A DNA stretch of 64,000 nt from Escherichia coli (GTDB taxonomy: Bacteria > Pseudomonadota > Gammaproteobacteria > Enterobacterales > Enterobacteriaceae): assembly GCF_044324875.1 (NCBI RefSeq), contig NZ_CP172185.1, one strand, 5' to 3'. Of this stretch, positions 3,237 to 16,118 are shown in pieces (within the stretch, counting starts at the first letter, position 1; the number at the start of each line of letters is the position of its first letter). The notes below the pieces were generated by a model that made no database searches, had not been told where the DNA came from, and saw only the letters and a list, made by a program, of their open reading frames with translations. A program made the translations under genes and the position numbers.

Positions 3237-3719
3237 TTATCGGGAAAAACCGATCGTAATGGCAGCCATCATCTTTTCAGCGAAAGAGAGAGATTCACGA
3301 TGACTGATATTCAGAGACATACAGGCTTTGTTGTACGCCACATTTTCCATGCATTCCAGGACAGGAGAGTCATGCATCTCAAGCTCTGGAAGGCGTGCCA
3401 GCAGAGCTTCCGTACTGAGGAGGGCGCTTTTGGTAATCAACTCATTGTAGCGATGGGCATGCTCACTCGCCGCCTGCGCACGTTGCCCGAAACGACATAT
3501 GAAATTACAGGCTCCGAGAACCACCACCACTGCCCCAAGCACCCAGCCGAAATGCCAGCCGGCTACGATGAACGCACCCGCCGCAAGGATCAAAATGTTG
3601 ATGATCGCATCAAGGCGACGATTGAATACCGCCGCGATGCGCTCCAGCCAGTAGCTGTACCAGAGACGGAACATGACCTCATCCCGTTCTCTCGATTTTT
3701 TACGTTGGTTGTTTTGCAT
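3237..3719 (-). CDS. Antisense-oriented two-TM membrane protein (160 aa); candidate moron
   Basis: Basic N-terminus (RKKSRER), two adjacent hydrophobic helices (IINILILAAGAFIVAGW / WVLGAVVVVLGACNFI), GAGGGA RBS; a competing plus-strand ORF 3219-3854 overlaps it. Confidence 0.4.
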   Translation of the reverse strand: MQNNQRKKSRERDEVMFRLWYSYWLERIAAVFNRRLDAIINILILAAGAFIVAGWHFGWVLGAVVVVLGACNFICRFGQRAQAASEHAHRYNELITKSALLSTEALLARLPELEMHDSPVLECMENVAYNKACMSLNISHRESLSFAEKMMAAITIGFSR

Positions 3720-5540: not shown

Positions 5541-8051
5541 ATGAGCCATCACCACACGCACCTGGCGTACCCGTGGAACGCCCCGCTGCCGGTTATTGAT
5601 CCTGAGACATTCGGCAGAGCATTACCGCAGAAGCCAACCGCATTACAACGGGCAATCCGTGACTACCTCACCGAAGACATTCGCACTGAGGCCCGGCTGG
5701 ATGAAGAAACCGTGGCCTTCCTGACAACCACGGACAAAGGTAAGCAAATTAATTCACACCTTCACCGGGACGAAGAGCGGCAGATAAGGCTGGATAAGCT
5801 GGCACGACACAGACGCGAAAATCCGCCAACGGCGGTATCGGAGGCGATAGCCGAACTTCGCACCCTGCCCTCGTTTCTTGCCAGTGTGTTGATCCGTGAT
5901 CTGGCACGACTGAACCGGAAACAGCAAAGTGCCCGCAGTGAAGGTGTAAAAAACAACAGCGCATACGTGGCCGATAATTTCGTTCGCCGTGGACTGCGTG
6001 CGCGCCTGAAACGTATTGAAAGGGTTAACGACCGCTTTGCAACGCCGGCATTCAAAACCACCGTCGTGCGCCATCGCCTTGAAGAACTGCTCACACTGCC
6101 GCAACTCACCCGTGACGAAATCCAGCGCATCGCCACACTGACAGCCCAGGCATTCGCCGCAGAATTTGAACGCATATGTGATGAAGTTCTTGAACGGACA
6201 GGCAAGGATAATGACAGCCCGGTTATCTGGCTGCTGGCCTACCAGAAGGTGGCACGCACAGCCTTAATTCTGGGCATGGTCCCGCCATACTGGCCGGAAC
6301 TCGAAATCAGGCACAACCGACGCACACCGCCGGACCCTGAACGGGTTCCGGGTGCGGTACTGCGCATCACCTGCGCGACCTGGTGGAACAACCAGTTACG
6401 CCACGTCGCCGATCTCTGGCGGGAGGAGTTACTGCGCGCCGCCGGCAGAGTGTCACGTAAACAATCCCCCTATATCAGCCATGAGTCACTACTGGAGTTC
6501 CGCGAGAAGCGCCAGCGCACCTGTGACTTTCTCAAAAGCTGGGATATTGAAAACGAAGACGGCGAGCGCCTGAGTCTGGAGGACGTGTACTGGGCTGGCC
6601 TGGGTAATCCACGCAACCGCCGCAATGAAATGATGGTCTGCGTCAGAGGGATGGAGATGGTGGCCGAATTACGGGCTGACGTCGCATTCTTCATCACAGT
6701 AACCACCCCTTCCCGCTTTCACAGCGTGAACGAGAACGGCAGCCTGAACCCGAAATACAACGGTGCCACAGTACGAGATGCCAGTGATTATCTGGTTTAC
6801 GACTTCTTCGCAGCCGTAAGAAAAAAAATAAAAAAAGAGGGGCTGGGCTGGTACGGCGTGCGAACCGCTGAGCCACACCATGACGGCACGCCACACTGGC
6901 ATATGCTGGTATTCACTTCCCCGGAGAACGCAGAGCGCATCATCGAAATTATGCGCGAAGCAGCAATTAAATCAGATCGCCACGAACTGGGGGACGATAT
7001 TTCACCGCGCTTTAAATGCGAGAAGATAGACCCGGAAAAAGGCACACCGGCAAGCTATATCGCAACCTATATCGGTAAGAACCTGGACGCCAGCGCTTTC
7101 CACAACAATGATCCGAAAACCGGAAAACCTTACGTTGATGAGGAATCCGGGAAAACCATGGCGGAAACCGTGGAGAACGCCATTGCCTGGGCAAGCCTTC
7201 ACCGCATCCGTCAGTTCCAGTTTTTCGGCATTCCGCCCCGCCAGGTATGGCGTGAACTCCGCCGCCTTGCAAGCCAGATGGAGCGCAACCCGGCATCACC
7301 GAAGCACCTCGATCATGACGATATTGACGCCATTATGGCTGCCGCAGATGTGGGATGTTTTGCCACCTACATCATGAAACAGGGTGGTGTGCTCATTCCG
7401 CGCAACCAGTATCTGGTCCGCACCGCATACGAAACCGCAGACGAAGCCAACGACTACGGTGAATTCCCTCAACGTATCTACGGAATCTGCGCCCCGTCGC
7501 TCGGAGAGCGGTACACCATATGCACCCATCCGGACGAGTGGAAACTGGTTAAAAAAGAAACAATACCAGACAACCGCACGGGCGAGGGTTTTGACCTTCA
7601 GGGCGACCCCGTCGCCCCTTGGACTCGTGGCAATAACTGTCCCCGGGATGAAAAAACAGACAATCACGGACCAGAAAACAGGCAGGACCCCGGACGACTG
7701 ACGCTTCCCGAAGAGAACCTGGAAAGCTGGCTGAATACGTTAAGCAGGGGCGATCGGAGAAAACTGCGTAATCAGATTAAAAATCAGCCGTCGGGCGCAA
7801 AAACCGGACAAAACGACACCACACCGGCATCTGACACCCCTGTAAGGGTGGGGATTGTCGTGCCTGCGGATACCGCGACGGACACGCAAATCGCCCGCGA
7901 ACTTGATGCGCTGGGTGTGCAGTTGCCTGACGCGGCCATCATCTCCGTGCGTAACGGTGCCCGTGTGCGTCTGGATAACGGGGGAACAGCGTACTGGGAT
8001 GAGTCAGCCCGTCACATCATCACAGAGCAGCCAGTGGAGGCGGGAGCATGA
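5541..8051 (+). CDS. A: P2 gpA-like rolling-circle replication initiator (HUH endonuclease)
   Basis: 836 aa; HxH motif context TPHWHMLVF; position and size match the P2 A family. Confidence 0.85.
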   Translation: MSHHHTHLAYPWNAPLPVIDPETFGRALPQKPTALQRAIRDYLTEDIRTEARLDEETVAFLTTTDKGKQINSHLHRDEERQIRLDKLARHRRENPPTAVSEAIAELRTLPSFLASVLIRDLARLNRKQQSARSEGVKNNSAYVADNFVRRGLRARLKRIERVNDRFATPAFKTTVVRHRLEELLTLPQLTRDEIQRIATLTAQAFAAEFERICDEVLERTGKDNDSPVIWLLAYQKVARTALILGMVPPYWPELEIRHNRRTPPDPERVPGAVLRITCATWWNNQLRHVADLWREELLRAAGRVSRKQSPYISHESLLEFREKRQRTCDFLKSWDIENEDGERLSLEDVYWAGLGNPRNRRNEMMVCVRGMEMVAELRADVAFFITVTTPSRFHSVNENGSLNPKYNGATVRDASDYLVYDFFAAVRKKIKKEGLGWYGVRTAEPHHDGTPHWHMLVFTSPENAERIIEIMREAAIKSDRHELGDDISPRFKCEKIDPEKGTPASYIATYIGKNLDASAFHNNDPKTGKPYVDEESGKTMAETVENAIAWASLHRIRQFQFFGIPPRQVWRELRRLASQMERNPASPKHLDHDDIDAIMAAADVGCFATYIMKQGGVLIPRNQYLVRTAYETADEANDYGEFPQRIYGICAPSLGERYTICTHPDEWKLVKKETIPDNRTGEGFDLQGDPVAPWTRGNNCPRDEKTDNHGPENRQDPGRLTLPEENLESWLNTLSRGDRRKLRNQIKNQPSGAKTGQNDTTPASDTPVRVGIVVPADTATDTQIARELDALGVQLPDAAIISVRNGARVRLDNGGTAYWDESARHIITEQPVEAGA

Positions 8052-8860: not shown

Positions 8861-9616
8861 TTAACGCGTTTTTTCGCTGCTTTCCACTACCGGGGGATTT
8901 TTCCTCAGTGACTCTCCCTGAAGGACCACTCGGTGTGAGTTATGTACCAGTCTGTCCAGGATGGCATCTGCTGTTGTTGGGTTCTCCATCAGACCATGCC
9001 ATTTATCTACCGGGAACTGGCTTACCACTATCGTGCTGCTTTGTCCGTAACGATCCTCTATGAGCTCCAGAAGGTCATTACACTGGGCGTTACTTAACTG
9101 TTCCAGCCCCAGATCGTCCAGGATTAGAACCTGTATTTTTTGCAACTGTTTCAGATATTTCAGCCAGCTGCCATCAACACGTCCCTGAGCCAGTTGTTCC
9201 AGTAATCGCCCGGTTCTACAGTACCGGACGCTGTGTTTCTGTCGACATGCCTGTTCGCCCAGCGCATTGGCTATCCAGCTCTTGCCACATCCTGTCGGAC
9301 CGGTTATCAGCAGGTTTTTCCTGTGGGTTATGTAGTGGCCGTTCAGCAGTTCTCTCATCTGTTCAGCCCGCAGACCTCTTGAGGCCGGATAGCGCAGCCC
9401 TTCCGGTGTTGCCTGGTATTTCAGGCCGGCATTTTTTCTCAACCGTGCCACACGGCTGTTTTCCCTGCTCAGAAGCTCGTCATCAACCAGCAGCGTCAGC
9501 CTTTCCTCGAACGACAGTTCGTCGTAGGTCTGAGGCGTTTCCCGCTGCCGTATCAGGCTCCCGGCCATCGCCGGGAGTTTCAGTTGGGTCAGTTTGTTTA
9601 ACAGGTTATCACTCAT
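8861..9616 (-). CDS. istB: IS21-family helper ATPase IstB
   Basis: Walker A GPTGCGKS; start taken at MSDNLLNKL. Confidence 0.85.
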   Translation of the reverse strand: MSDNLLNKLTQLKLPAMAGSLIRQRETPQTYDELSFEERLTLLVDDELLSRENSRVARLRKNAGLKYQATPEGLRYPASRGLRAEQMRELLNGHYITHRKNLLITGPTGCGKSWIANALGEQACRQKHSVRYCRTGRLLEQLAQGRVDGSWLKYLKQLQKIQVLILDDLGLEQLSNAQCNDLLELIEDRYGQSSTIVVSQFPVDKWHGLMENPTTADAILDRLVHNSHRVVLQGESLRKNPPVVESSEKTR

Positions 9617-9632
9617 ACTGTTGTTCCTTCTG

Positions 9633-11168
9633 TCAGTGGTAGTAGCCCGGACCACGCAGGTTTTCATGCTCTGAAGCATATGCCGGATGTTGTTCGCCCT
9701 GGCGGGATAATGGAAGCTCCAGGTTCTCCCGATGGTGACGCAGCAGATTGTCGATAAAGCGTCTGTCAGGGGCGTTATAGTGCAGGGCAACGTAACAGGC
9801 CTTTTCCAGCCGTTCCGGGCCGTATTTTTTCTGAAGTGCCAGCAGCCCCAGAACTGCACGATAAGCCAGTTCCGGATGGGGTTTTGCCTTCAGCATGGAT
9901 TCAACCACCCGGCCTGTGGACGGGCCCGTACGTTTTCCCTGCTCGATCAGGCGTTCCGGTGTCCATGTCCCGTGCTGCCGGTGGCGCTCTGGCATGTGAA
10001 GCGGATTGGTTGTGTGTTTATATTCATGTGTGCTGCGCGGATGTTGCGCCACACACTGCCCCTTGTGCCAGAGCTGTACCACCGACTGCCCCGCCTTCAG
10101 TGACAGACGCTGACCGACCAGTTCGTGTGGAACGGAGTACCAGTGACGGGCATATTCAACGTGGTAGTCAGGGCCAACCTTCACAGCTTTGTATTCCGTG
10201 TATTCATAAGGTGCCAGAGGCAGCGGAGAGAGTGCTGGCGCATCCAGTATGCGGAAGCGTTCTGCACGGGTTTGATTGCCGTACCCCTTCATTGGCCGGT
10301 TATTCATGTCTGTCAGTAACTCCCTAAGGCGCGCATTCAGCGCCCTGAGCGTGTGGAAGGTTTCATTACGGATGCGGGCAAGAAGCCATCGTTCAACGAT
10401 GAGGACGCCGTTTTCTGCTTTTGGTTTATCTTTAGGTTTGCGTGGTCGGGCCGGGATGATAACCGTGCCATAGTGCTCAGCCAGTGCCTGATAACTGTCG
10501 TTGATGACAGGCTCATATCGATCGGCCTTTTTCACTGCGCTTCTGAGGTTATCGGGGATGAGCAGCTTCGGTACGCCGCCCAGGAAGGTCAGGCAACGGC
10601 TGTGGGCATTTAACCATGACATCATGTCCTGACCTTCGCACGCTTCAACGTAGGTATAGTTGGACGCCCCCATTACGGCCACGAAGATTGCCACGCGGCG
10701 TATCTCACCGGTGTCCGGATTAATAACAGGAACCGTAGGACCACAGAAGTCGATAAAAAGCTTTTCGCCGGCACGATGCTCCTGGCGCATGGAGAGACGT
10801 CGCGTTTTTTTCCACTCCCGGTAGCAACGGCAGAAGTGCGAGTATCCCATCGCTTTGTTACCCGCCTGTGCCTTGTATTCCATCCACAACAGTTGCCGCG
10901 TCACACCTGGTTTTCTCATTTCCGTATCGAAGTACAACATGTCAGGCATTACAAGCTCTGATGCAAAGGTGTCTTTGGGCGGAAAAATGAGTTTCTCCAG
11001 CGTGTCATGGGATATATCAGCAGGTAATGGCCATGACAGAGAAGAGGCTTTGAAGCGGGCAAGAACCTCAAAAACGGTTGAGGCGCTGATGTGTAACGTC
11101 AGTCCGATACAACGGTTAGTCAGCTTCTTGTCGAACTTGAGCTGAAGGATCTTAAAACAGGTTTCCAT
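9633..11168 (-). CDS. istA: IS21-family transposase IstA
   Basis: ~512 aa from METCFKILQ; N-terminal HTH and integrase-like catalytic core typical of IstA. Confidence 0.85.
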   Translation of the reverse strand: METCFKILQLKFDKKLTNRCIGLTLHISASTVFEVLARFKASSLSWPLPADISHDTLEKLIFPPKDTFASELVMPDMLYFDTEMRKPGVTRQLLWMEYKAQAGNKAMGYSHFCRCYREWKKTRRLSMRQEHRAGEKLFIDFCGPTVPVINPDTGEIRRVAIFVAVMGASNYTYVEACEGQDMMSWLNAHSRCLTFLGGVPKLLIPDNLRSAVKKADRYEPVINDSYQALAEHYGTVIIPARPRKPKDKPKAENGVLIVERWLLARIRNETFHTLRALNARLRELLTDMNNRPMKGYGNQTRAERFRILDAPALSPLPLAPYEYTEYKAVKVGPDYHVEYARHWYSVPHELVGQRLSLKAGQSVVQLWHKGQCVAQHPRSTHEYKHTTNPLHMPERHRQHGTWTPERLIEQGKRTGPSTGRVVESMLKAKPHPELAYRAVLGLLALQKKYGPERLEKACYVALHYNAPDRRFIDNLLRHHRENLELPLSRQGEQHPAYASEHENLRGPGYYH

Positions 11169-11400
11169 AGTGCTCCTGGATTTTCTCTTTCTGGACATTG
11201 ACGTCTCCACTGGTTTAAACACGGCAATGGAGACTGTGGTGAAAAGAGTTAATTCCCGGAGTGACTGGCAGGATGCCAATCAATGATCGGAAGCATGCCA
11301 AATCGTGATCGATTGTGATGCCAAACTGTGATCGGAGATGGATGCCAAATCATGATCGATTCGAATGCCAAACTGCGATCGATTCAGATGCCATTTTGCA

Positions 11401-11641
11401 TCAGTCATCAGATATTCCATTCGGAATGGATATCAACGACGCCTGTATGCTCCAGGTATACCGCATAGCTCAGGCTGCACTACAGGCAAAACCGTCAGAT
11501 GGACTGGTTAGAGCAGTACGTTTCTATGAACTGGTAAAGCGTGAGAATCCGCCAGTCGAAACCGGAGCATGGCAAGACGCTGTTGACTGGGTGCTCAAAG
11601 AGGCTTGTCAGGTTGTAAACACTGGCATCAAAGGAGACTGA
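11401..11641 (+). pseudogene. 3' part of the cargo gene split by the IS insertion
   Basis: Removing the IS and one TSD copy joins 8682-8761 in frame to this segment, giving a 104-aa ORF. Confidence 0.6.
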
Positions 11642-11642
11642 T

Positions 11643-11852
11643 ATGGCTATTGCCGCAAGTTACACCATGCATCTCTATTGTGATTGTCGCCAGTGTACAA
11701 ATGGTAAATATCAAACGCCAGACTTCGGTGAATATATCGGTACGTCATGGACTGGCTGTGCAAAAGAGGCGCGTAAGGATGGCTGGCGAATAAGCAAAGA
11801 CAAAACTCGTGCTTTTGCGCCCGGGCATAAAGTTTTGAGGATTAACAAATGA
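11643..11852 (+). CDS. Small Cys-rich protein (69 aa), possible zinc ribbon
   Basis: AAGGAG RBS; CDC-x2-C ... C pattern; tightly packed in the operon. Confidence 0.5.
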   Translation: MAIAASYTMHLYCDCRQCTNGKYQTPDFGEYIGTSWTGCAKEARKDGWRISKDKTRAFAPGHKVLRINK

Positions 11853-12250
11853 CCACTATAACCAAAGAGCGACTACTGACAATCAGGCAGTGGCGCGAAA
11901 CATACGGACCTGGTAGCAACGTTGTACTGCCAGCCGAAGAAGCGGAAAAACTGGCACGGATTGCTTTGGCATCGCTGGAAGCAAAACCAATAGGTGCTTT
12001 CCACATTGCAGAACAGCAGGTCGATGGCACAAGTGACTACATCAAGGATGGGGAGTACCGCTTGCTGACATCTGAAGAACAAAAGATAGCCCAACTTTTA
12101 GGCGATGCATGGAACCTGTATTTTACATTGCCAGTTGAGCATCCAATGGGTAGAGATGAATTTTGCCGGGCAATTCATCATTGCCAAAATATGGTGTTGG
12201 CACGCCCTGCCATCAGGGCGCTGGCCAGTAAGGGGCAAGGCTATAAATAG
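11849..12250 (+). CDS. Hypothetical cargo protein (133 aa)
   Basis: Start overlaps the previous stop (ATGA); followed by a strong terminator. Confidence 0.5.
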   Translation: MTTITKERLLTIRQWRETYGPGSNVVLPAEEAEKLARIALASLEAKPIGAFHIAEQQVDGTSDYIKDGEYRLLTSEEQKIAQLLGDAWNLYFTLPVEHPMGRDEFCRAIHHCQNMVLARPAIRALASKGQGYK

Positions 12251-12256
12251 ATGAGC

Positions 12257-12285
12257 AAAACGCCCTCCTCCAGGGCGTTTATTTC
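12257..12285 (+). terminator. Rho-independent terminator closing the cargo operon
   Basis: Hairpin AACGCCCTCCTCCAGGGCGTT followed by a T-rich run. Confidence 0.6.
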
Positions 12286-12741
12286 AATGCACAATAGTGC
12301 ACAAATTTGCACAATTTTTTTGAACGACTTTTTGCCCTTCCGGCCCGTGTGGCGTCTGGATCCGTCGGGGATCCGTGCGTGCACGAAAAAAGGCCTTTTT
12401 CTGCGCGCAGGTGACGGGGGAACAGCCCGCGTTTCAGGGGGTAAATAGCATTCCCTGAACGATGTTGCAGTGACACAACAGAATGGCTGTATTTCTCACG
12501 CTGAGCGTGAAAAAGACGTAAGGGCTTTTGATTTGATGGGGTGAAAGATAAGGCCGTCAAAATCGCACTGAGGCAGCGAGAATATGTCGTCAGAGTTGCG
12601 GGGTTGCGTAAGCATCCGCCCGGCGATGATGGCTACAGGGCTGGAGATGTTGTGAAATTATCTGAAGGAATAACCAGCTTGCAGGAGAACCCGGGCAAAG
12701 TCAGAATAGCGGCAGGCATCAACTCAAAAGAGGATAATGTC

Positions 12742-13245
12742 ATGAGCCACTTTAATGATTTATGCCAGATCAATCGTGAAGCTGAAGAAAAACGCGCTGA
12801 GGCAGCTCAAATTTTGCGGGATGAAGCGGCAAGGCTGATTGATTTCTATGAAGAATGGCTGGGGCTTCCATCCATGTACTGGGAAGACGATGATGGCGAC
12901 CTGCACCGCTACGTGGAGACAGGCTTGCCATGTAAGACAGCGGCGGATTTTAGTCCTCTTTCAGTCCACAATATCGCATCTGCACCAGACAATATTTTCC
13001 GCATGGCCGTGCGAACCTGGGTTAAGTCATCTGACAGCAGCTACCCGGTAAGCGTGGTTATTGCACTTGAATTATATTCAGTAGATGCGGAACGGGTGTC
13101 TCTGAGAGTCCGGGTGGAAGACGATATTTCTGTTCGCGTATTTATCAATAAACCCAGCGAAGAAGCCTGGGGCGATGTTGTTATGCACATGAAAAAGCAC
13201 ATCGCTAATCACCTGAAAAAGCGAGCGCCATCAGCACTTCGTTAA
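12742..13245 (+). CDS. Hypothetical acidic protein (167 aa) next to the portal gene
   Basis: AGAGGA RBS before ATG at 12742; an upstream in-frame GTG at 12541 is an alternative start. Confidence 0.45.
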   Translation: MSHFNDLCQINREAEEKRAEAAQILRDEAARLIDFYEEWLGLPSMYWEDDDGDLHRYVETGLPCKTAADFSPLSVHNIASAPDNIFRMAVRTWVKSSDSSYPVSVVIALELYSVDAERVSLRVRVEDDISVRVFINKPSEEAWGDVVMHMKKHIANHLKKRAPSALR

Positions 13246-13311
13246 GCAGAGCTGGAGAGTCGGGGCATAAATTTTTTATGCCCCGGCGAAGCAGCAGACA
13301 AGCGAAGCGCG

Positions 13312-14367
13312 TCAGGATATGGGCTGGGTGTCTAACAGTGCGTAAGGGTTAAAACGGATCACCTCTTCGCCCAGCCAGTCGTTGACGTGTTTCATTGCTT
13401 CCATGACGGGCATCAGTTCGTTAATGGCAAACACACGGGCTGCCTTCTCCACATCCCCGAATGACCCCTTCTCACCCGGCATGGCCCCCATCAGCTGCGG
13501 CGGTACACGGTGCACGGACAGCACATCATCACGCGATGCAGCCTTGACGTTCATGAACTCATCCTTTGCGGTGATTTGCTGAAACGGCAAAATCTGTACG
13601 CCATCCTTACCACCTCCCGCCGCGTGGATGAGCAGATTTTTAAACGCCCCGCCACCACGCGCGCTTTGCAGTGTTTCCCGCAGTTTTTCCATGCTTTCAC
13701 GGTCAACCTGCGCCGCACCGATGTAGACAATACAGCCCGCGTGTGAGCCGTTATCGTAGTAGAGCTTGCGGAAGATATCGGCGGAATGTGACAGGCTGGC
13801 AGACAGCAGGCCGCCCAGGTAATCCGGCATCCCGTAAATCTCCTGGTTGATATCAGGATTCATCAGGTGGCATATCGTCCCCTCACGAAAGCGGTACTCT
13901 TCCTGTCCTTCCTGTATATACCACCATGATTTCATATCGCTGCCACGTCGCATGTATTTCGCCAGCGCCCGGCGCAGGGCCAGCGGTTCGCCAAGCATGT
14001 TGCGCCGCAGCTCAAGACAGGCATTACCGAACACAAACCAGTCCATCGCCACCCCGGCGAACTCCTGGCGGGACAGCAGAGGATGTGGAATATAGCAGCC
14101 CAGCAGCACATTACGTTTGAAGCTGAGCGCCGACTGGTGCCAGGACGTCTGGCGGGCAGCCCGTGCCAGTCCGTACCAGTCAACGGGCGTTTCAAACCAC
14201 CGCCCGTTGTCGGCGCAGTACATGCTGTCCAGCAGGTCGGCCCCTGACAGCCGGTAAGGTCCTTCAAACGTGAAGGCACTCAGTGTCGGGTCGCTTCGCA
14301 GGGAATCCGCAAGGCTGCCCTGCGCTGCGCGGGCGTTCGTACGTCGTTGTTTATTTTTTCTGCTCAT
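13312..14367 (-). CDS. Q: Portal protein, P2 gpQ-like
   Basis: 351 aa, adjacent to and co-oriented with the large terminase, as in P2. Confidence 0.85.
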   Translation of the reverse strand: MSRKNKQRRTNARAAQGSLADSLRSDPTLSAFTFEGPYRLSGADLLDSMYCADNGRWFETPVDWYGLARAARQTSWHQSALSFKRNVLLGCYIPHPLLSRQEFAGVAMDWFVFGNACLELRRNMLGEPLALRRALAKYMRRGSDMKSWWYIQEGQEEYRFREGTICHLMNPDINQEIYGMPDYLGGLLSASLSHSADIFRKLYYDNGSHAGCIVYIGAAQVDRESMEKLRETLQSARGGGAFKNLLIHAAGGGKDGVQILPFQQITAKDEFMNVKAASRDDVLSVHRVPPQLMGAMPGEKGSFGDVEKAARVFAINELMPVMEAMKHVNDWLGEEVIRFNPYALLDTQPIS

Positions 14368-16118
14368 CAGAACTCCGTAACACTGAAGGGGGCGGCATCA
14401 TGTTCACCGCCGACAGGTTCGTTGATAACGGCCAGCATGGTGGCCCATGCAAGATCGCCATGGCTTACGCCTCTTGCGCGATCTGTTTCGTAGGTGATAA
14501 ATCCGGCCTGCGTTTTTGTTTTGCGTACCGCGTTAAAGGCGCTCACCAGTTCGCGCTCGCTGCGGTCGTACTCCCACCGCCCGGCGCGCATGAGCTGCAG
14601 CATCTTCAGAACCAGCGTGCGCTTTGATGACAGGGTGAAGGTGTAGGGAATGGCTGCCGGAAAAAAGCGCTTCACAATCTGATACACCGCATCCCCGTGA
14701 CCGCCGGTTACGTCAATACCGATATGCTCAACGTTATAGCGAAAGGTGAACTCTTCAATCACCTTCGCCTGCGCCTCAAACTCCAGCCCCTGCACCCGCC
14801 GCGTCTCCACGGTGCGAAAACGCCCGCCCGGTACGGCTGGCGGCACCACCACGACAACCGCCCCGCTGTCACCGTTCCCGCTACTGCCGTTGGCGTCGTA
14901 CCCAATCCACACAGGGCGGTTCCCCATCGGACGCGGTGCAAACGGCTTCCAGTCCGGCCACTCGTCGTATCCGTCAACACCGCAGCCAATCAGGATATTC
15001 AGGTTAAATGCCGATTCCCCTTCGCGAGCAAATTCACACATGTAGAGATTGCGGAACTCGTCTTCAGTGTTATTGCGCCGGATTTTGTCAATGTTGGTTA
15101 ACGTCCATCCCTGACTGACCACATCTTCCAGCGTCACAATTTGCCGCCAGATATAGTCAGGACAGATAAGGCCGTTATGAAGCGCATTCCAGCTCACATC
15201 AAAATGCTGACGTTTATGAGTACGAAGCCCTTCATTCCAGTGATCGCCGTTCCAGTATGCATACGCCTCATGTGTTTCACTTGATGGCGTGGAAAAATAG
15301 GTACACCGCAAACCATCCAGCGTTGCCATAGCAGCAGCCACCTTGCGCAGCTCTGCGAAACGCCCCGTCCAGAAAAACTCATCAAAATACAGATTCCCTG
15401 TGTACGCTTGCGCGGTGGCCGCAGAAGTGCCGAGAAAATGCAGCTCTGCACCGTTGGAGAGGATGACTTTATCGCCCCCTTTCAGTTCCACATCAACTTC
15501 AGATGCAGCCTTCTGAATAATGCTTTTAAACTGGAGCGCCTGACGACGAGACGCAGACAAAAAAATCTGGTTACGCTGGTAAGGTTGTGCCACATCGTCA
15601 CGCAGCGCCATCAGCAGCGCTTCCTGCGCAAAATACCAGGTCGCCCCAATCTGGCGGGATTTCAGGATCATCCTGTCAGTAATTCCGGCACGCTCACAGG
15701 CACCGATAGCATCAAGCCATTTGCGCTGGTGTCCGGCCAGCCTGTCGGTAATTTTTTCCCGCAGCGCCGCGATCTGTTCCGGCGTGAAATGATTTTTGCG
15801 TTTTTTCGCCCGGCCTTTCTTTCCTGTTGCCGTCTCATCCGGCAGACCGTCATGCAGCTTTTTAAGCTGACGGGTCAGCAAATCAATTTCCTTAAAGTCC
15901 CCGCCTGTTTTATTCTGTTTTTCCGTGAGCTGAATGAGTCGCGCATCCATGGACTGCGTGACACGCTGAACCGGGGGCGTCTCATCCCACTGGTCGCGTT
16001 TTTTCCACGAATGGATCGTGTTCTGGTTGATACCCATAAGGCGGGAAATTTCCGCAACAGGGTAACCCTGCCAGTACAGCTGGCGTGCCCGCTGGCGAAC
16101 AAATGTATCCTGAATCAT
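14367..16118 (-). CDS. P: Terminase large subunit (ATPase), P2 gpP-like
   Basis: 583 aa; divergent from the scaffold gene as in P2. Confidence 0.85.
   Translation of the reverse strand: MIQDTFVRQRARQLYWQGYPVAEISRLMGINQNTIHSWKKRDQWDETPPVQRVTQSMDARLIQLTEKQNKTGGDFKEIDLLTRQLKKLHDGLPDETATGKKGRAKKRKNHFTPEQIAALREKITDRLAGHQRKWLDAIGACERAGITDRMILKSRQIGATWYFAQEALLMALRDDVAQPYQRNQIFLSASRRQALQFKSIIQKAASEVDVELKGGDKVILSNGAELHFLGTSAATAQAYTGNLYFDEFFWTGRFAELRKVAAAMATLDGLRCTYFSTPSSETHEAYAYWNGDHWNEGLRTHKRQHFDVSWNALHNGLICPDYIWRQIVTLEDVVSQGWTLTNIDKIRRNNTEDEFRNLYMCEFAREGESAFNLNILIGCGVDGYDEWPDWKPFAPRPMGNRPVWIGYDANGSSGNGDSGAVVVVVPPAVPGGRFRTVETRRVQGLEFEAQAKVIEEFTFRYNVEHIGIDVTGGHGDAVYQIVKRFFPAAIPYTFTLSSKRTLVLKMLQLMRAGRWEYDRSERELVSAFNAVRKTKTQAGFITYETDRARGVSHGDLAWATMLAVINEPVGGEHDAAPFSVTEF

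Follow-up and report, generated by a model that had tools for sequence, protein, structure and literature searches.

The gpA-gpQ interval of P2-like phages, which runs from the replication gene to the portal gene, has been treated as one cos-adjacent hotspot (PMC9122126, Rousset et al. 2022; "moron position 1" in PMC3573123). In phage phiCTX, an annotated cosL is accompanied by one plus-strand gene, ctx, with its own -35/-10 promoter, by terminators and by the convergent portal gene Q, and in phiRSA1 cargo genes start 353 nt from the left end of the record. The layout, a moron beside cos, is thus a known and ordinary one. In the 64,000-nucleotide stretch of Escherichia coli DNA analysed here (hereafter, the window), we found a similar arrangement, in which a predicted cos region is followed by a single plus-strand gene convergent with the portal gene. 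It differs from phiCTX in that ctx encodes a pore-forming toxin, an unrelated protein, and in that the window cos is a predicted one. The window gene lies within the same replication-to-portal interval as the P2 hotspot; however, old and tin of P2 are on the gpA side of cos, whereas the window gene is on the portal side of the predicted cos. The gpA-gpQ hotspot would accordingly be made of two compartments split by cos, a division that we offer as a modest addition to the published view. Unlike the P2 hotspot, the portal-side compartment is small and, in the loci that we sampled, it is dominated by one uncharacterised family, which fills it almost alone.

The window prophage is P88-like (Xuanwuvirus, P2 family). 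The portal gene, a homologue of P2 gpQ recognised from the open reading frame (ORF) list and from the annotation of near-identical loci, occupies 13312-14367 on the minus strand. The ORF list also gives the large terminase gene (14367-16118, minus strand) and the scaffold gene (from 16132), and the three genes are in P2 order. P88 and its relatives align with 12251-13311 at 86-90% identity over about 45% of the length, in two pieces; pairwise BLAST against P88 itself returned 12236-12665 at 88% and 13249-13398 at 95%. Our census of E. coli comprised 5426 complete genomes, with a P88-like prophage, or the flanks of the locus, in about 1140 to 1157 of them (1139 of 5426 in one count).

The cargo operon upstream ends at an intrinsic terminator at 12260-12285 (plus strand), 3' of a 133-aa ORF, in which the stem ACGCCCT/AGGGCGT is followed by TTTATTT. 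With its stem-loop, its U-run and a fold of -18.8 kcal/mol (z -4.5), this element is indeed the terminator that the initial annotation had placed upstream of the stretch of interest. The operon itself (11315-12250) consists of three small genes, encoding proteins of 108 aa (phrog_26213/660), 69 aa (phrog_926) and 133 aa (phrog_13916/60). In strain LH50-c, the same position holds different cargo, namely a DUF6516/HVO_A0114 pair and a RelE-family toxin. Also in the cargo region downstream of the replication gene, at 8861-11279 on the minus strand, are two adjacent ORFs of 548 and 332 aa, the latter with a GPTGCGKS nucleotide-binding motif; judged from their translations only, they resemble an IS21-type transposase and its helper.

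After the terminator, the initial annotation had noted about 450 bp without a convincing ORF, which it took as a long leader preceding the next gene. We concur on the first point, as the 456 bp at 12286-12741 contain nothing that is credible as a coding sequence. A single in-frame candidate, the GTG ORF that starts at 12541, is equivalent to an annotated 42-aa ORF in P88. Across 50 distinct relatives in IMG/VR, the variability of this ORF at the three codon positions is 7.0/6.6/5.8, that is, with no third-position bias; among the copies, the start codon is variable and frameshifts are present in several. The leader itself gives way to another interpretation, in which the 456 bp comprise a cos site and a lineage-specific spacer, the gene having a promoter-like motif of its own. 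The first 165 bp (12288-12452, plus strand) are most likely the cos packaging site of this P88-type phage, as predicted from conservation, sharing with a satellite, position and box geometry, and cos would most likely lie some 850 bases upstream of its earlier placement. The spacer (12453-12665) is non-coding, about 88% identical to P88, and includes the equivalent of the 42-aa ORF; it is not conserved in Salmonella, in Edwardsiella or in the satellite. No Rfam match was obtained in 11200-13600.

Homology among the roughly 1140 E. coli prophages starts at about 12288, right after the terminator and the variable cargo. The 165-bp block is kept in E. coli, Salmonella, Edwardsiella and other P2-like prophages, while its flanks diverge. 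We aligned six sequences, including P88, the Salmonella and Edwardsiella relatives, a further E. coli P2-like prophage and the satellite. Three TGCACAA boxes, a GTGCAC(A)AAAAA motif and the core GCGCGCAGGTGACGGGGG (12403-12420, plus strand) are retained, the core being unchanged in all six sequences. An exact-match scan of IMG/VR with this core yielded at least 120 stretches, and an ungapped profile of 113 distinct sequences among the matches listed delineates the same island of about 165 bp. The core is found 189 to 945 bp from the 3' end of the convergent portal gene in 110 of the 110 portal-bearing IMG/VR loci listed. In the window, the block sits between the gpA-side cargo and the portal 3' end, as a P2-family cos should. 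Distances from the core to the contig end showed no consistent value among the IMG/VR matches listed.

We also considered the start of the linear P88_4B11 record, which corresponds to 12333 and not to 12410, as a possible physical end. This candidate was rejected, the junction being seamless and devoid of a terminal repeat; since the paper describing P88_4B11 reports no end mapping, we view the record start as uninformative rather than contrary. Two further observations concern the block. Two GGATCC sites 5 bp apart (12358-12374) form a small hairpin inside it, which is conserved in the E. coli P88-like phages and not in Salmonella, Edwardsiella or the satellite. One IMG/VR locus (L111) has the whole block, TGCA boxes and core, in two tandem copies about 290 bp apart, with 543 bp from the first core to the portal gene.

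Is the internal organisation of the block compatible with a cos site? In P2, TGCAT boxes are located at -123, -111, -101 and -29 from the annotated top-strand cos nick, and in 186 TGCA occurs at -124 (and -120), -111, -101, -35 and -29 from the annotated nick. The window presents three TGCACAA boxes exactly 10 bp apart (starting at 12288, 12298 and 12308, thus covering 12288-12314) and a fourth box, TGCAC, at 12380-12384, all on the plus strand. Relative to 12410, these putative terminase-binding boxes are at -122/-112/-102/-30. The best match to the P2 cohesive end in 12251-13330 is GGTGACGGGGGAACAGCCC, with 13 of 19 positions identical, and it starts at 12410, exactly where the P2/186 box geometry predicts. 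Taken alone, the P2 19-mer is uninformative and 13/19 is a chance-level score, because 17 sites reach it on the two strands of the whole window. By our own estimate, the top 19-mer out of about 1060 positions would come to lie within 2 nt of the box-predicted place by chance with a probability of about 0.005. The annotated left ends of P2, 186, phiRSA1 and phiCTX all start with GGYGWGGCGGGG.

The predicted site resembles the P2 and 186 cos sites in its boxes, set at about the same distances, in a candidate G-rich 19-mer starting GGYGA and in its location 3' of the portal gene; it differs from them in that the candidate cohesive end is only 13/19 identical to that of P2. The distance from the 19-mer to the portal stop also differs, with 883 nt here, about 310 nt in P88-like phages that lack the cassette described below, and 167-176 nt in P2 and 186. 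Because conservation, the satellite, position and geometry converge, the cos region is well supported, while the exact nick, at about 12410, is a prediction from homology of architecture. The corresponding 19-nt cohesive end would span 12410-12428 on the plus strand, with the nick placed to within 1-2 nt. This prediction for P88-type phages is an addition of the present analysis, and it would revise where the genome ends lie in a prophage type carried by about one fifth of complete E. coli genomes.

Among the genes of the satellite mentioned above (L010; NZ_CM145715.1, 3800572-3812737) are those for an Icd-like protein, a toprim primase, an integrase and an Ogr/Delta-like protein, and it has neither a portal nor a terminase gene. 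Its positions 6001-6166 match 12288-12452 at 82% identity (E 1e-36), and BLAST of the satellite against the whole 64-kb window returned only this block and a weak match in the Icd-like gene. Three of the IMG/VR loci listed have the core and no portal gene within more than 3 kb, and these proved to be the same satellite, at 95-96% identity. The sharing of the block mirrors that of the cos signal by P2 and P4 (PMC9122126). We infer that the satellite depends on the terminase of a P88-like helper. A satellite family carrying the P88-type signal is, like the cos prediction, an addition of this work. In IMG/VR, this P4-like satellite corresponds to L061, L118 and L128. L010 carries its own "P2 family major capsid protein" gene, which is unusual for a P4-like element.

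Sequences shared by a satellite and its helper may have other functions, as the two also share late-promoter logic in the case of P2 and P4. The block at 12288-12452 could then be a common regulatory element, for instance an Ogr/Delta-dependent late promoter, or an origin, and the presence of the Ogr/Delta-like gene about 225 bp downstream of the block in the satellite would be consistent with this. However, where phages lack the cassette, the block is flanked by a terminator and by the portal 3' end and has nothing downstream to transcribe. In addition, the satellite has separate GGTTACA iterons as its origin candidate, and the boxes of the block are spaced as in the annotated P2 and 186 cos sites, with a candidate G-rich 19-mer that resembles theirs. 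A regulatory element is, in our opinion, very unlikely, and we retain cos as the interpretation of this block.

Where the initial annotation had suspected cos, at 13262-13303, it had noticed a hairpin and a loose resemblance to the P2 cos ends. The hairpin is indisputable: a perfect palindrome with an 11-bp stem and a 3-nt loop occupies 13261-13285, between the convergent 167-aa and portal genes, and it folds with a z of -5.4 on the plus strand and -3.8 on the minus strand. It is probably a transcript-end or terminator element, although termination is not assured because a U-tract is absent beside it on both strands. In Salmonella and Edwardsiella, this position is also taken by a hairpin, but its sequence differs; a terminator that separates convergent genes would be expected to show such a pattern. 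The P2 and 186 records annotate terminators, tQ and tW, just past the portal stop. Between the hairpin and the portal stop, 13285-13311 (minus strand) is a conserved 27-nt element, GGCGAAGCAGCAGACAAGCGAAGCGCG, within the 3' untranslated part of the portal transcript. Its identity is 95-100% across more than 1100 E. coli genomes, and the satellite lacks it. We observed it as nearly identical in Edwardsiella, although the nearby DNA has diverged, and did not find it in the Salmonella relative; besides the window, copies are present in loci L006 (about 6545-6571) and L017 (about 3399-3430). Phages with a gene inserted next to the portal gene (variant B, see below) retain the element upstream of the inserted gene.

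If cos were at 13262-13303, the 167-aa gene would be the last gene at the right end, like old in P2. Over 1100 E. coli genomes have the whole block 13249-13311 at 95-100% identity, above the adjacent spacer, and GGAGAGTCGGGGCATAAAT at 13254 matches the ends of P2, 186 and phiRSA1 at 12 of 19 positions, two facts that could be taken to favour this location. Yet 12/19, the best score near 13254-13304, is at chance level, and the alignment to the P2/186 cos that had been suggested as a check gives 13/19 together with the box geometry at 12410; no TGCA boxes are present at P2-like distances from the downstream candidate. The block is also absent from the satellite, which must carry the packaging signal of its helper. 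The Salmonella relative has no 27-nt element and the hairpins of both relatives differ in sequence, so that the hairpin sequence is not conserved across genera, and in variant-B phages an insertion of 600 bp separates the block from the portal gene. We thus consider this placement extremely improbable, the P2/186 geometry pointing to about 12410.

The spacer and the hairpin block are separated by a 583-bp cassette (12666-13248, plus strand), where phage P88 has 9 bp instead. The cassette was found in 28 of the 5426 complete E. coli genomes, compared with about 1140-1157 for its flanks. Its G+C content is 48%, versus 57% for the phage late region, and its junctions display only a weak AGCT..GGAGA similarity. 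It contains the gene for a 167-aa protein of family phrog_5091 (12742-13245 with the stop, plus strand), identified by a profile match, by homologues and by a dN/dS of 0.15 relative to the Salmonella orthologue. A Shine-Dalgarno sequence, AAGAGGA (12728-12734), stands 8 nt before 12742. Upstream of it is a promoter-like element at 12679-12707 (plus strand), which consists of TTGCAG (12679-12684), a 17-nt spacer and CAGAAT (12702-12707), this -10 box ending 34 nt before the ATG. Its agreement with the consensus is weak (3/6 for the -35 box and 4/6 for the -10 box), and a simple consensus promoter scan did not list it. The case for this element comes from motif conservation: TTGC(A/T/C)(G/A)-N17-CA(G/A/C)AAT, its -10 box ending 30-39 nt upstream of the ATG, recurs in five independent contexts, which are the window gene, its Salmonella and Edwardsiella orthologues, a third variant (L058) and variant B, the divergent variants B and C being among them.

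Owing to the promoter-like motif, the Shine-Dalgarno sequence, the lower G+C content and the terminal hairpin, the cassette reads as a textbook moron, a moron being an accessory transcription unit that some related phages have and others lack. Strain LH50-c has an identical gene with different gpA-side cargo, and the 167-aa gene is therefore independent of that cargo. The initial annotation had described this gene as a second cargo gene, encoding an acidic protein and ending 66 bp before the portal gene. It is a genuine accessory gene, which phage P88 and most P88-like prophages lack, and the 66 bp are borne out by the portal stop at 13312. The ORF at 12742-13245 is likewise sound, but the acidity of its product is only mild (pI 5.4, with 28 D+E versus 21 K+R).

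The start assigned to this gene within 12541-13245 depends on the gene caller: JGI gives 234 aa, UniProt 236 and 197 aa, and PGAP 197 aa (WP_001354611.1). The frame is open from 12541, and the real product might be a longer protein of 234 aa from the GTG at 12541 or of 197 aa from a GTG at about 12652, in which case the presumed leader would be partly coding. Against this stand the Salmonella, Edwardsiella and E. coli orthologues, which are 167-169 aa long with an MSHF start, and the position of the Shine-Dalgarno sequence 8 nt before 12742. Moreover, the extension would span the cassette junction at 12665/12666, and its first part is without a coding signature in relatives. A longer product seems quite improbable to us, and we keep the 167-aa ORF.

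The two parts, cos at 12288-12452 and a moron at 12666-13248, are unrelated in our reading of the locus, and we hold this joint reading with reasonably good confidence. Four TGCA boxes would precede a G-rich cohesive end, with terminase nicking at about 12410. Such a nick would therefore set the portal gene at the left end of the virion DNA and the variable cargo downstream of gpA at the right end. The initial annotation would then be right in placing the gene just inside a genome end, but the end would be the other one, with the gene as the first at the left, in the interval from cosL to the portal gene, and not the last at the right. In this short interval, the moron would comprise a sigma-70-like promoter (TTGCAG-N17-CAGAAT), a Shine-Dalgarno sequence and the 167-aa ORF. 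The gene would be expressed from its own promoter, and its transcript would end at the hairpin common to the convergent portal operon. The product is probably dispensable for virion production and could bind another protein in a phage-host or phage-phage conflict, through exclusion or counter-defence.

What could this product be? A homology search had been proposed for it, and the protein matches phrog_5091 over its full length (E 3e-52, residues 1-166 of 167), a family with no assigned function. A set of 5.8 billion proteins contains only nine clusters at the 90% identity level, with E. coli, Salmonella and Edwardsiella as their sources and, for the most part, a length of 167 aa. The AlphaFold2 model (pLDDT 83.5, pTM 0.78) has a long N-terminal helix, an antiparallel sheet and a C-terminal helix. 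We describe the product as soluble and of 19 kDa, with a helix/beta-sheet/helix organisation. No domain or solved-structure relative was found, no family of the PADLOC-DB 2.0 defence-protein models matched at E up to 0.1, and neither enzyme, membrane nor DNA-binding signatures were detected in the protein. A literature search with the protein accessions and the PHROG number retrieved no paper. From its context, we tentatively propose a cytoplasmic accessory protein that binds a partner in a phage-host or phage-phage conflict, a proposal to which we give somewhat less than an even chance.

Relatives in AFDB are all uncharacterised, and one of them is labelled "phage tail protein". Since in P2-like contexts the gene always adjoins the portal gene, one may wonder whether the protein is a virion or assembly component tied to the portal and terminase genes rather than an accessory factor. 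However, about 63% of the E. coli genomes with a P88-like prophage have no member of the family, and P88 and the virion-derived P88_4B11 have none in the cos-to-portal interval. The gene runs towards the portal gene and is preceded by a promoter-like motif of its own, and in lambdoid phages its relatives are found between the Q antiterminator and holin genes, away from the head genes. A virion component is highly improbable on these grounds, and we continue to regard the gene as accessory.

The Salmonella and Edwardsiella copies are placed like that of the window: a non-coding cos region precedes them and the portal gene faces them in convergent orientation. Searching 1.84 billion representatives with a profile produced 31 relatives, and all those tested match phrog_5091; tblastn of the 167-aa protein against GenBank phage records gave nothing. 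When a remote relative was used as the query, and only then, a divergent member of 174 aa was revealed between the hairpin block and the portal gene. This variant B is present in 397 of the 5426 complete E. coli genomes, and its carriers include phage vB_EcoM-705R2 and the ST131 strain EC958. The variant-B relative WP_000236495 appears at least 167 times as "hypothetical" in a published table (PMC9122126). Variants A (the window type) and B are inserted at two different points that flank the hairpin block. With 28 and 397 genomes respectively, they account for a cos-to-portal interval occupied by the family in about 37% of the genomes with a P88-like prophage, which number roughly 1140-1157. 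In the P2 and 186 records, the initial 1.3 kb, a stretch that begins at cosL and reaches into the portal gene, contains no family member. As for whether this is a conserved gene of the P2 family, the family thus recurs in the slot of P88-like phages and is absent from P2 and 186.

Among the IMG/VR loci listed, all 12 with a core-to-portal spacing of at least 700 bp have an ORF of the family there, and no family member was seen elsewhere in the locus. The slot is not exclusive to phrog_5091, because two IMG/VR loci carry an Ogr/Delta-like ORF in it: in L053 and L117, a minus-strand ORF of 108 aa, of the Ogr/Delta-like zinc-finger type, replaces the phrog_5091 gene in the cos-to-portal interval. 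It seems unlikely to us, if conceivable, that phrog_5091 proteins form a new class of conflict factors in phages, serving counter-defence or exclusion, for which genomic position matters. Should they do so, a P88-like slot filled almost only by phrog_5091, with at least three independently inserted variants and the same promoter architecture in each, could mean that the gene must be first or last on the linear genome.

In lambdoid phages, the slot between the Q antiterminator and the lysis genes is that of the stx genes. We read the context of the remote members of the family where contigs were long enough, several being on contigs too short for this. Three lambdoid loci, with two Q families, have a remote member in exactly that slot, between the Q antiterminator and holin genes. 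These loci differ from the window in the phage type and in expression, which there is probably from the late promoter and not from a promoter of the gene's own. Given the P2-like and lambdoid placements, the family thus behaves as a mobile accessory gene in standard moron slots of different phage types. Its presence in the lambdoid slot also makes phrog_5091 a reasonable, if not urgent, candidate for functional testing. In a fourth locus, a remote member lies between an endolysin gene and HNH and terminase genes.
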